Source: Escherichia coli | GTDB lineage: Bacteria > Pseudomonadota > Gammaproteobacteria > Enterobacterales > Enterobacteriaceae | Assembly: GCF_003334335.1 (NCBI RefSeq) | Contig: NZ_QOWQ01000004.1 | DNA length: 64,000 bases | Direction: 5' to 3' (one strand) | Shown here: positions 18,219 to 18,758 of the stretch, in pieces | Layout of the letters: each line of letters begins with the position of its first letter | How positions within the stretch are numbered: the first letter of the stretch is position 1 | Notes under the pieces: model-generated | What the model was told of the DNA's origin: nothing | Databases searched by the model: none | The model's input: only the letters and a program-made list of their open reading frames with translations | Program-made: the position numbers and the translations under genes

Positions 18219-18288
18219 GAAACCTCGTGCGGTGGTTGTTTTTTTGATCTACGCAGTGATGCGTGTGTAAGTTTGCAATTCCGTTTGT

Positions 18289-18306
18289 TGTATTAATTTG
18301 TTTACA
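18289..18306 (-). promoter_or_regulatory. Candidate TyrR box upstream of aroP
   Basis: Minus-strand reading TGTAAAcaaattAATACA resembles TGTAAA-N6-TTTACA; approximate; not experimentally checked here. Confidence 0.5.
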
Positions 18307-18710
18307 TCAAAGAAGTTTGAATTGTTACAAAAAGACTTCCGTCAGATCAAGAATAATGGTATGCGGCAGCGAATGCACCCGCTTTATGCATGGTTGAAGA
18401 TGAGTTGCTTAAAAAGAAACCGTTTGTAAAGCTCAGCCTCAACCCCTCTCAATATGTAGAATGAATTTAAATTCGTTTTAATTGAATTAAAAATCACAAA
18501 ATTGGTAAGTGAATCGGTTCAATTCGGATTTTTATAGTTTAATAATCGTTAAAAAACTCCTTTCCTACGTAAAGTCTACATTTGTGCATAGTTACAACTT
18601 TGAAACGTTATATATGTCAAGTTGTTAAAATGTGCACAGTTTCATGATTTCAATCAAAACCTGTATGGACATAAGGTGAATACTTTGTTACTTTAGCGTC
18701 ACAGACATGA

Positions 18711-18727
18711 AATTGGTAAGACCAATT
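18711..18727 (+). promoter_or_regulatory. PdhR operator (PdhR box) in pdhR-aceEF-lpd promoter
   Basis: Palindrome AATTGGTaagACCAATT about 30 nt upstream of pdhR start; matches PdhR box consensus ATTGGT-N3-ACCAAT. Confidence 0.8.
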
Positions 18728-18758
18728 GACTTCGGCAAGTGGCTTAAGACAGGAACTC

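Follow-up and report, generated by a model that had tools for sequence, protein, structure and literature searches.

Why does the divergent control region between aroP and pdhR of Escherichia coli extend over 540 bp, and does it hold one PdhR operator or two? The gap occupies positions 18219–18758 of the window, the 64,000-nucleotide stretch of DNA analysed here. It corresponds to the E. coli K-12 aroP/pdhR intergenic region (MG1655 121552–122091) and its sequence is 100% identical in many E. coli genomes. The GC content of the gap is 35.0%, compared with 52.7% in aroP, 55.8% in pdhR and 51.1% in the whole window, and falls to 26.8% in the centre of the gap (18441–18578). The original prediction of an AT-rich, 540-bp divergent control region thus agrees in identity, length and composition, and its sequence observations were all borne out, coordinates included. 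The locus is a well-studied, textbook-level regulatory region and in that respect there is little out of the ordinary in the finding; earlier work has mapped the PdhR operator, the TyrR boxes, the promoters P1, P2 and P3, the FNR/CRP input, H-NS binding and the usp insertion site. The gap is bounded by two genes:

16845–18218, minus strand: aroP coding sequence (aromatic amino acid:H+ symporter; ORF list and MG1655 annotation b0112)
18759–19523, plus strand: pdhR coding sequence (MG1655 annotation b0113)

We consider it probable that the 540 bp are best explained by two regulatory modules with a spacer, and that the second PdhR-like copy found among them is no operator. The gap would then comprise two complete, independently conserved modules standing back to back across a short, hypervariable, AT-rich spacer: an aroP module (about 18219–18440) with two TyrR boxes, promoters P1 and P2 and the divergent P3, and a pdhR module (about 18508–18758) with a promoter starting at 18701, an FNR-type site and the PdhR operator. 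Our comparison set consisted of 12 other Enterobacteriaceae species, retrieved by exact match to the PdhR box, so that the conservation of that box is partly by construction; the alignment covered 13 species, and conservation scores were taken across the 11 that are not Escherichia. The gap had been described as unusually long for a simple promoter, a view that does not survive this comparison: it measures 524–593 bp in the 12 species and consists mostly of conserved blocks. These discrete blocks coincide with published elements and leave a trough at 18439–18498. We attribute the conserved length to the two full modules standing back to back; what is added here is that the length is ancestral, together with a reason for it.

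The aroP module contains the following elements:

18266–18283, unstranded: weak TyrR box TGTAAGTTTGCAATTCCG, read from sequence; conservation 0.78 across the 11 non-Escherichia species
18289–18306, unstranded: strong TyrR box TGTATTAATTTGTTTACA, two mismatches to TGTAAAN6TTTACA; conservation 0.84
18332–18362, plus strand: divergent aroP promoter P3, with −35 AAGACT (18332–18337), a 19-nt spacer and −10 TGGTAT (18357–18362), directed toward pdhR
18350–18392, unstranded: conserved block AGAATAaTGgTAtGC...GAATGCACCtGCTTTATG, the region in which the P1 and P3 cores overlap; conservation 0.78
18404–18440, unstranded: conserved block gAtGAgTTGcttAAAAAGAAACCgTTTGTAAAg upstream of the aroP promoters (13-species alignment), a candidate UP element or factor site

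The TyrR-like box originally noticed near aroP lies exactly at 18289–18306 and is the known strong TyrR box; strong and weak boxes, as well as P1, P2 and P3, are described at aroP in PMC7142922. By pattern alone the strong box does not rise above chance, as the window holds 21 matches at up to three mismatches against 25.9 expected; we regard it as real because it is conserved across genera and TyrR binding is published. Measured against TGTAAA-N6-TTTACA, the strong box matches at 10/12 positions and the weak box at 7/12, both retaining the G at position 2 and the C at position 17, and with a start-to-start spacing of 23 bp the two lie on the same helical face. The element at 18266–18283, which adjoins the strong box and had been overlooked, is taken as the weak box from its position farther from P3. 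A 111-bp fragment carrying the strong box and P3 is sufficient for expression, and TyrR binding has been published (PMC7142922). The same work gives the P3 −10 TGGTAT and the UPEC −35 AGTACT, from which K-12 differs at two bases. The −10 and the −35 are each unique in the gap and their spacing is identical in CFT073. P3 is very weak or nearly non-productive in K-12, and drives usp where the island is present (PMC7142922). The starts of P1 and P2, on the minus strand and 21 bp apart, are placed approximately, in or near 18305–18375. In the published scheme, TyrR together with aromatic amino acids brings RNA polymerase to P3, a divergent promoter that is almost non-productive, and so keeps polymerase off the overlapping major aroP promoter P1; P2 lies 21 bp downstream of P1.

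The core of the pdhR module is made up of three elements:

18644–18657, unstranded: FNR/CRP-type inverted repeat ATGATttcaATCAA, centred at −50.5, read from sequence; conservation 0.93
18666–18701, plus strand: pdhR core promoter, with −35 TGGACA (18666–18671), −10 TACTTT (18689–18694) and start A at 18701; conservation 0.95
18711–18727, unstranded: PdhR operator AATTGGTAAGACCAATT at +11 to +27, a unique perfect match; conservation 0.97, partly by construction

Published 5′RACE finds one pdhR start only, an A that precedes the ATG by 58 nt, and the promoter as printed there agrees with our sequence (PMC2759082); the hexamers were assigned here from sequence. The PdhR box, originally called near-perfect, sits at precisely 18711–18727, is in fact perfect, and is the known autoregulatory operator. 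It is the sole match with fewer than three mismatches to AATTGGTNNNACCAATT in the 64 kb, with none at all, and conforms to the 17-bp palindrome AATTGGTnnnACCAATT with its GGTnnnACC core. Given the literature 5′RACE start of 18701, the box begins at +11 and overlaps the transcribed start region. In genomic SELEX (gSELEX) it is the strongest PdhR target (14/14) and the only box annotated under the peak, and the GGTnnnACC core is needed for PdhR (PMC7660256). The sigma70/sigma38 promoter starting at 18701 is repressed by PdhR bound to the perfect palindrome at +11 to +27, until pyruvate releases it. The FNR/CRP-type repeat and further conserved upstream blocks may modulate this promoter; aroP/pdhR is among the FNR ChIP-chip targets, and bidirectional Fnr-mediated control has been described (PMC3974632).

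Whether PdhR has a second operator turns on two adjoining elements at the upstream edge of this module:

18499–18509, plus strand: AAATTGGTAAG, an 11-nt copy of the left half and spacer of the PdhR operator, an exact repeat; conservation 0.40 across genera
18510–18521, unstranded: putative Cra(FruR)-type inverted repeat TGAATCGGTTCA, −191 to −180 from the pdhR start; conservation 0.91

The half-matching copy first reported here, aaattggtaagtgaatcggttcaatt, is present exactly at 18499–18524. Its 11-nt repeat AAATTGGTAAG is shared with 18710–18720 and is the longest exact repeat within the gap. As sequence, therefore, the observation stands; as a PdhR site it does not. The left half matches at 7/7 positions and the right half at 1/7, so that the copy reads GGTaagTGA, without the ACC half; pairing its left half with CAATT requires a spacer of 11 nt rather than 3. 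Outside Escherichia the left half is conserved only at background level (0.40 across genera, compared with 0.97 for the main box), whereas the right part is a separate conserved element (0.91) that fits Cra and not PdhR. The copy is probably not a second PdhR operator, and its left 11 nt are an Escherichia-specific repeat: AAATTGGTAAG is invariant within E. coli, divergent variants included, matches at 10/11 positions in E. albertii, and is absent from Citrobacter, Enterobacter, Kluyvera and usp+ E. coli, the last reading TTGCTTGG in its place.

The copy could instead be a working auxiliary operator or half-site that acts jointly with the main operator, which lies 211 bp farther downstream, through looping for instance, tightening autoregulation or extending PdhR control to aroP. 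Dinucleotide shuffles give this idea some encouragement: a match of at least 11 nt to the PdhR box and its flank arises in only 0.25% of them (some repeat of that length, in 7.2%). The invariance of the repeat in divergent E. coli variants and its near-identity in E. albertii point the same way. Moreover, scores down to 8/14, which is what the second copy reaches, occur among the PdhR sites assigned by gSELEX (PMC7660256), and Alishewanella has two perfect boxes 147 bp apart upstream of pdhR. We nevertheless hold an auxiliary operator to be unlikely. The copy lacks the ACC required in GGTnnnACC (PMC7660256), would need the 11-nt spacer to find a partner half, shows background conservation of its left half in the 11 other species and is missing from usp+ E. 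coli, and a single box is annotated under the gSELEX peak. The coordinate of that peak, 121966, is an array-probe position common to the FNR study, and cannot separate the two sites. The original prediction called for more than one PdhR-bound site or for additional transcripts from the region; only one PdhR site is reported, and an extra transcript, that of P3, does arise (published).

The right part of the copy is better read as an element of its own. TGAATCGGTTCA matches the TGAATCGATTCA core at 11/12 positions, the best core match in the 64 kb. It conforms to the Cra motif (gcTGAAtCGaTTCAgc / TGAAWCSNTHHW, the operator consensus gcTGAAtCGaTTCAgc being that of PMC5888115) with a score reached by 5 of 5000 shuffles. 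Ten of the 12 Enterobacteriaceae have a box of this type at −248 to −251 from the pdhR ATG, against none among 60 further pdhR upstream regions, and the variants across genera (TGAAaCGcTTCA, TGAATCGcTTCA) change only at degenerate positions of the Cra consensus. A related element closes the next conserved block downstream:

18579–18612, unstranded: conserved block CATTTGTGCAtaGTTACA...TGAAACGTTATA; conservation 0.78

Its last 12 nt (18601–18612, at −100 to −89) are a second Cra-type half-site match that fits TGAAWCSNTHHW, found at −158/−159 from the ATG in 6 of the 12 species. Cra is known to repress pdhR-aceEF-lpd, an operon at which it also has a ChIP-exo peak. The published wording puts that site “downstream of two promoters” of pdhR, which, with the single start site being named P1-P2 (PMC2759082), points downstream of 18701 and not to 18510; the Cra-like GTGAGGCGATTCAA at 18914–18925, inside the pdhR coding sequence, is a possible ChIP-exo site. 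The −191 position is unusual for a simple repressor. Searched as a string in full texts, TGAATCGGTTCA and its complement turned up in eukaryotic primer sequences only.

From its sequence, we infer that TGAATCGGTTCA is most likely a site for a LacI-type regulator, with Cra as the best fit; binding there would supply a distal carbon-flux input to pdhR. That another regulator occupies it, either PlaR/YiaJ of the IclR family or a different LacI-family protein, seems to us improbable, though somewhat less so than an auxiliary PdhR operator. PlaR does select the aroP/pdhR spacer in gSELEX, and its box ATnTGAAACnnnGTTCAnTT shares the TGAA..TTCA half-sites, the right half GTTCAATT being an exact match; SdiA gSELEX and Salmonella RamA ChIP-seq match this gap too. 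However, the half-sites are spaced (TGAAnCGnTTCA, 12 bp) as in Cra operators and not as in the 14-bp PlaR core, the genera vary at degenerate Cra positions, and it is Cra that is documented as regulating this operon. A more ambitious proposal takes the Enterobacteriaceae-specific TGAATCGGTTCA at −191 and TGAAACGTTATA at −95 as working distal Cra/PlaR operators that also act as a usp boundary and interact with PdhR. We put this forward as a tentative, on balance doubtful, possibility. If true, pdhR, and perhaps aroP as well, would receive information on glycolytic flux from sites at an unusual place upstream. The candidate Cra/PlaR sites of usp+ strains would separate pdhR from the toxin island driven by P3, as a possible boundary or roadblock, and through the neighbouring AAATTGGTAAG half-box of Escherichia PdhR would interact with a Cra/PlaR-type regulator. 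The “second PdhR box” is here reassigned to a conserved Cra-type element whose function is cheap to test.

Between the two modules lies the joint:

18441–18498, unstranded: hypervariable AT-rich spacer joining the modules; lowest conservation, 0.32–0.48; the empty insertion point of PAIusp (usp-imu1-3)

The spacer has a GC content of about 27%, and it is here that substitutions cluster when E. coli variants and E. albertii are compared. In 1059 of 5426 E. coli genomes (about 20%) the gap spacer holds the 4-kb usp island; the full K-12-type gap is found in 4364 genomes and missing from 1060, with usp present in 1059. At the three usp loci inspected, the island replaces the stretch 18441–18498 between aroP and pdhR, a location already published, as is transcription from P3 (Rihtar et al. 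2020, PMC7142922). The gap has the marks of the empty site of an island hotspot, namely the same flanking genes with the island present in other strains, and alternative states across the species. It is at the spacer that about 20% of E. coli have the usp genotoxin island, with P3 as the promoter that transcribes it. The 21-mer at 18410–18430 recurs at both ends of the island (16/21 and 17/21). These are the two best matches in the usp+ intervals, and 0 of 3000 shuffles reach 17/21; containing no 8-nt exact seed, the repeat was missed by the repeat search and found by direct scoring.

It might be argued that the long AT-rich centre is simply foreign DNA or a scar of usp loss, a “promoter island” that is bound by H-NS and silenced and itself plays no part in regulation. 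MG1655 121694–122036 (window 18361–18703) is indeed among the 78 promoter islands listed and is H-NS-bound by ChIP-chip (PMC3661553). The low GC of 18441–18578, the 1059 genomes with the island at this place and the hypervariability of the spacer even between E. coli and E. albertii would all suit such an origin. Yet the length and block layout are common to 12 species from at least 6 genera without the island. Conserved blocks, among them the Cra-type box and the pdhR promoter, take up most of the published promoter-island interval; no more than about 60 bp are free of constraint. Scanned with a strict sigma70 consensus, which misses known weak promoters too, the region gave 0 promoter-like sites against 1.3 expected. 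We therefore give this reading little chance and retain two conserved modules with a spacer. A K-12 centre made of usp island remnant was also considered and rejected, as blastn returned just 13–17-nt matches and the 12 other species have the same length and layout.

The sRNA candidate first mentioned for this neighbourhood belongs elsewhere:

19568–19681, minus strand: tp2 sRNA candidate in the pdhR–aceE gap, outside the finding (Rfam RF02030, 103.4 bits, E = 3e-19)

The candidate in question is tp2, in the pdhR–aceE gap and not in the aroP–pdhR gap. An sRNA in the aroP–pdhR gap was rejected as a candidate, the permissive Rfam scan having given tp2 only; scanning 18219–18758 at E ≤ 1 gave no match. 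A consensus promoter and terminator scan of 18100–18900 returned 0 of each, missing even the known promoters, which are weak matches, and is for that reason uninformative. It appears very improbable that an sRNA or small protein has escaped annotation in the gap, for instance as the P3 transcript or a small ORF. P3 is a real divergent promoter directed into the spacer (PMC7142922), small ORFs of 31–44 aa occur on both strands and promoter islands are reported to give short oligonucleotide transcripts. Against these stand the empty Rfam result with tp2 in the next gap, the lack of a terminator-like site in a scan that missed known promoters too, the absence of any annotated feature in MG1655 or the other genomes compared, and the very weak or non-productive nature of P3 in K-12 (PMC7142922). 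Moreover, the stretch downstream of P3 is the least conserved and contains indels, a pattern that no conserved ORF or RNA would show.

Set beside known systems, the aroP side shows no difference from the P1/P2/P3–TyrR system of Wang, Yang and Pittard (1997–98, summarised in PMC7142922), in which activation of P3 by TyrR occludes P1: the sequence is identical. Nor does the main box depart from pdhR autoregulation as described by Quail and Guest (1995), Ogasawara (2007) and Anzai (2020, PMC7660256), sharing the locus, the 17-bp palindrome AATTGGTaagACCAATT, the +11 to +27 position and the start 58 nt from the ATG; the second copy is not part of that description and is without its core motif. The tp2 RNA (RF02030) shares the neighbourhood and occupies a different intergenic gap. 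Among the promoter islands of Panyukov and Ozoline (2013, PMC3661553), interval 121694_343 is listed and scored as H-NS-bound; here, however, it proves to be mostly conserved regulatory sequence common to genera without foreign genes at this place, and a simple sigma70 scan shows no excess of promoter-like sites. The element at 18510–18521 resembles Cra operators (PMC5888115) in being a 12-bp inverted repeat matching at 11/12, in varying between genera at degenerate positions and in belonging to an operon reported as a Cra target, but differs in lying far upstream (−191), where the published ChIP-exo description puts Cra downstream of the promoter. PAIusp (PMC7142922) offers the closest parallel for the spacer, K-12 being the empty site and usp+ strains carrying the island between aroP and pdhR. 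Beyond that account, we find that the insertion point is the least conserved 20–60 bp, that an imperfect 21-bp direct repeat brackets the island, and that foreign-looking (Citrobacter-like) flanks reach about 18570 on one side and the TyrR/P3 region on the other. That the usp genotoxin island is set exactly in the unconstrained joint between two modules, with a short imperfect repeat and foreign-looking flanks, bears on how this island spread.

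The aroP–pdhR gap (window 18219–18758, MG1655 121,552–122,091, an offset of 103,333) is 100% identical in many E. coli chromosomes, and neither MG1655 nor the other matching records listed annotate any feature inside it. Its GC content is 35.0%, compared with 51.1% for the window and 53–56% for the flanking genes, and 26.8% at its centre (18441–18578). The original prediction had marked a PdhR box, a second copy of that box and a TyrR box here; all three lie exactly where it had placed them, so the observation is confirmed, while its interpretation is partly supported. It had also considered the region unusually long for a simple promoter. 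When pdhR loci of other species were fetched by the exact operator 17-mer and aroP and pdhR placed by tblastn, the gap measured 524–593 bp, with 34–41% GC, in 12 other Enterobacteriaceae species (including E. albertii, three Citrobacter, Kluyvera, several Enterobacter-like genomes, Pseudescherichia and a Klebsiella sp.); its length is therefore ancestral, and the conserved blocks within it are discrete. Overall, the gap consists of two full regulatory modules with a short unconstrained spacer between them, rather than a simple promoter with spare DNA.

Features of the gap and its flanks. Conservation is the mean fraction of 11 non-Escherichia sequences agreeing with K-12 in a MAFFT alignment.
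16845–18218, minus strand: aroP, left flank of the gap
18266–18283: inferred TyrR weak box, conservation 0.78
18289–18306: inferred TyrR strong box, conservation 0.84
18350–18392: P3 −10 and P1 core, conservation 0.78
18404–18440: upstream block, conservation 0.62
18439–18498: trough (20-bp bins), conservation 0.32–0.56
18499–18509: AAATTGGTAAG, conservation 0.40
18510–18521: TGAATCGGTTCA, conservation 0.91
18522–18578: second low stretch, conservation 0.49
18579–18643: conserved blocks, conservation 0.74–0.78
18644–18657: FNR-type ATGATttcaATCAA, conservation 0.93
18658–18701: pdhR core promoter, conservation 0.95
18711–18727: PdhR operator, conservation 0.97 (partly by construction, the loci having been fetched with the operator sequence)
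18759–19523, plus strand: pdhR, right flank of the gap

On the pdhR side, 5′ RACE has placed the single start at an A located 58 nt before the ATG, and the name pdhRP1-P2 reflects the use of this one start by both sigma70 and sigma38 (PMC2759082). This A corresponds to 18701; the PdhR palindrome therefore occupies +11 to +27. The box, predicted to be near-perfect, is a perfect 7+3+7 palindrome (AATTGGTAAGACCAATT, 18711–18727) and the only match with fewer than three mismatches in 64 kb. gSELEX ranked the gap first among PdhR targets, scoring one box there 14/14, and identified GGTnnnACC as the required core (PMC7660256). The exact 17-mer is also found in front of pdhR homologues from Shewanella, Pseudomonas, Vibrio and others, several Shewanella genomes carrying it at 2–3 loci; in Alishewanella longhuensis (L034), the pdhR homologue is preceded by two perfect AATTGGTAAGACCAATT boxes (1965–1981 and 2112–2128), 147 bp apart.

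Other regulators have been assigned to the same DNA. MG1655 121694–122036 (window 18361–18703) belongs to a published set of 78 “promoter islands” and was scored as H-NS-bound (PMC3661553); the gap is among FNR ChIP-chip targets and has been presented as a bidirectional switch under Fnr control (PMC3974632), both PlaR and SdiA select it in gSELEX, and it is among the Salmonella RamA ChIP-seq targets. A strict sigma70 consensus scan of 18100–18900 returned 0 promoter-like sites, though four promoters are documented there; the known hexamers, TGGACA/TACTTT and AAGACT/TGGTAT, are weak consensus matches.

The proposed second, half-matching PdhR copy (18499–18524) does contain a genuine repeat. The exact 11-mer AAATTGGTAAG is shared with 18710–18720, and no exact repeat in the gap is longer; 0.25% of dinucleotide shuffles yield at least 11 nt of match to the PdhR box plus flank. 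What is missing is the core: the copy reads GGTaagTGA where GGTnnnACC is required, scores 8/14 (left 7/7, right 1/7) in the scheme of the gSELEX study by Anzai et al., and pairing AATTG with CAATT (18520–18524) would need an 11-nt spacer, not 3. Only its right part is conserved, and its left half is Escherichia-specific (E. albertii AAGTTGGTAAG, Citrobacter tt/taAGGTAGG, usp+ E. coli TTGCTTGG). This left half may be a weak, Escherichia-specific PdhR half-site, as chance is unlikely to produce the 11-nt repeat and divergent E. coli variants retain it unchanged; however, the invariance spans the whole of 18499–18557 and may merely reflect haplotype structure.

The conserved element TGAATCGGTTCA (18510–18521) agrees with the Cra core TGAATCGATTCA at 11 of 12 positions (consensus used, gcTGAAtCGaTTCAgc; PMC5888115), and no site in the window fits that core better. 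Ten of 12 Enterobacteriaceae species have it at −248 to −251 relative to the pdhR ATG, and its variants TGAAaCGcTTCA and TGAATCGcTTCA change only degenerate consensus positions; it was found in none of 60 sequences upstream of pdhR from Vibrio, Shewanella, Pseudomonas and others. TGAANCGNTTCA arises in 5 of 5000 shuffles of the gap; 18601–18612 is a second match, to the older consensus TGAAWCSNTHHW, and two such matches arise in 2 of 5000. Judged from sequence, 18510–18521 is a candidate Cra site, an assignment to which we give slightly less than an even chance. The main alternative is that PlaR binds it instead of Cra, as the PlaR box ATnTGAAACnnnGTTCAnTT is related to the conserved element and PlaR selects the gap in vitro. 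According to published work, Cra represses pdhR-aceEF-lpd, and ChIP-exo shows a Cra peak at the operon; since the peak was described as “downstream of the promoters” and P1-P2 share a single start, it points downstream of 18701. A Cra-like GTGAGGCGATTCAA with two core mismatches lies inside the pdhR coding sequence (18914–18925) and may be the published ChIP-exo site.

On the aroP side, transcription starts from the major promoter P1 and from P2, 21 bp downstream, with the divergent P3, pointing toward pdhR, overlapping P1 (Pittard laboratory work, summarised in PMC7142922). TyrR binds a strong and a weak box and, with aromatic amino acids, brings RNA polymerase to the nearly non-productive P3, whereby P1 is repressed; the P3 −10 is TGGTAT and the UPEC −35 AGTACT, two bases different in K-12 (PMC7142922). 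Here the −10 lies at 18357–18362 and the −35, AAGACT, at 18332–18337, both unique and with a 19-nt spacer as in CFT073. The TyrR-like box predicted near aroP, TGTATTAATTTGTTTACA (18289–18306), has two mismatches to the consensus; the pattern alone is not above chance (21 matches at ≤3 mismatches versus 25.9 expected), but this box is conserved across species and is a published TyrR site. From published deletion results, we infer that it is the strong box, nearer P3, and that the adjoining TGTAAGTTTGCAATTCCG (18266–18283) is the weak one. The block gAtGAgTTGcttAAAAAGAAACCgTTTGTAAAg (18404–18440), conserved in 12/12 other species, could act as the UP element for aroP P1 or represent a binding site not previously recognised. 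Immediately before the Shine-Dalgarno, the aroP mRNA leader (18219–18262, minus strand) is C/A-rich (..CAAAAAAACAACCACCGCACGAGG..). Sequence of this kind is targeted by GcvB, and aroP is mentioned in a 2025 paper on GcvB and the uptake of aromatic amino acids.

The sRNA candidate that the original prediction mentioned with little confidence for this neighbourhood is almost certainly tp2, which falls outside the gap. A permissive Rfam scan of 16500–20500 found only tp2 (RF02030, 103 bits; 19568–19681, minus strand), antisense in the pdhR–aceE gap, and no RNA-family match inside the aroP–pdhR gap. The gap holds no terminator-like site by consensus scan and no conserved ORF, and the stretch downstream of P3 is hypervariable, with indels.

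The full K-12-type gap is present in 4364 of 5426 complete E. coli genomes; in 1060, the match is confined to its last 140–190 bp. The usp gene, found in 1059 of the 5426, accounts for these partial matches, and the usp island occupies the spacer at 18441–18498. Three partial-match genomes, CFT073, SCU-123 and KC-Dl-1, have a ~4-kb block between aroP and pdhR encoding a 593-aa “TssD” (an Hcp-pyocin-nuclease fusion), immunity genes and orphan nuclease/immunity cassettes. This block is PAIusp (usp, imu1-3), whose location in the gap and transcription from P3 are already published (PMC7142922). Identity between a usp+ strain and K-12 is 96–100% in the aroP coding sequence, and drops to 89% in 18200–18300 and 59% in 18300–18400. 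On the pdhR side, identity is back at about 99–100% from about 18569–18575; from the island to that point, the usp+ sequence is closer to Citrobacter than to K-12, with the Cra-type box retained. The K-12 21-mer TAAAAAGAAACCGTTTGTAAA (18410–18430) has its two best matches in the usp+ interval exactly at both island ends (16/21 and 17/21), the latter score being reached in 0 of 3000 shuffles.

Imperfect direct repeat of TAAAAAGAAACCGTTTGTAAA at the island ends.
L004 (usp+ locus): 3936–3956 and 7830–7850
L002 (CFT073): 2586 and 6478
L003 (usp+ locus): 3937 and 7839

The island flanks look Citrobacter-like and differ from K-12 far more than the neighbouring genes do, as far as about 18570 and into the TyrR/P3 region. 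In E. albertii and in the most divergent E. coli variants with an empty site, differences cluster in 18432–18498. Together, the diverged flanks, end repeats and variable 18432–18498 stretch suggest that the island entered at the least constrained joint and would then have spread with its foreign flanks by homologous recombination. In CFT073, an IS3-family element (L002 about 6696–8000; junction at window 18617) lies between the island and pdhR, so that no more than about 84 bp before the start site remain native; pdhR therefore lacks both Cra-type boxes and the 18579–18612 block, and is a natural promoter-truncation variant. Published work already covers the region and its main elements; the mildly new points are limited to the conserved Cra-type box within the “second PdhR copy” and the detailed structure of the island junctions.
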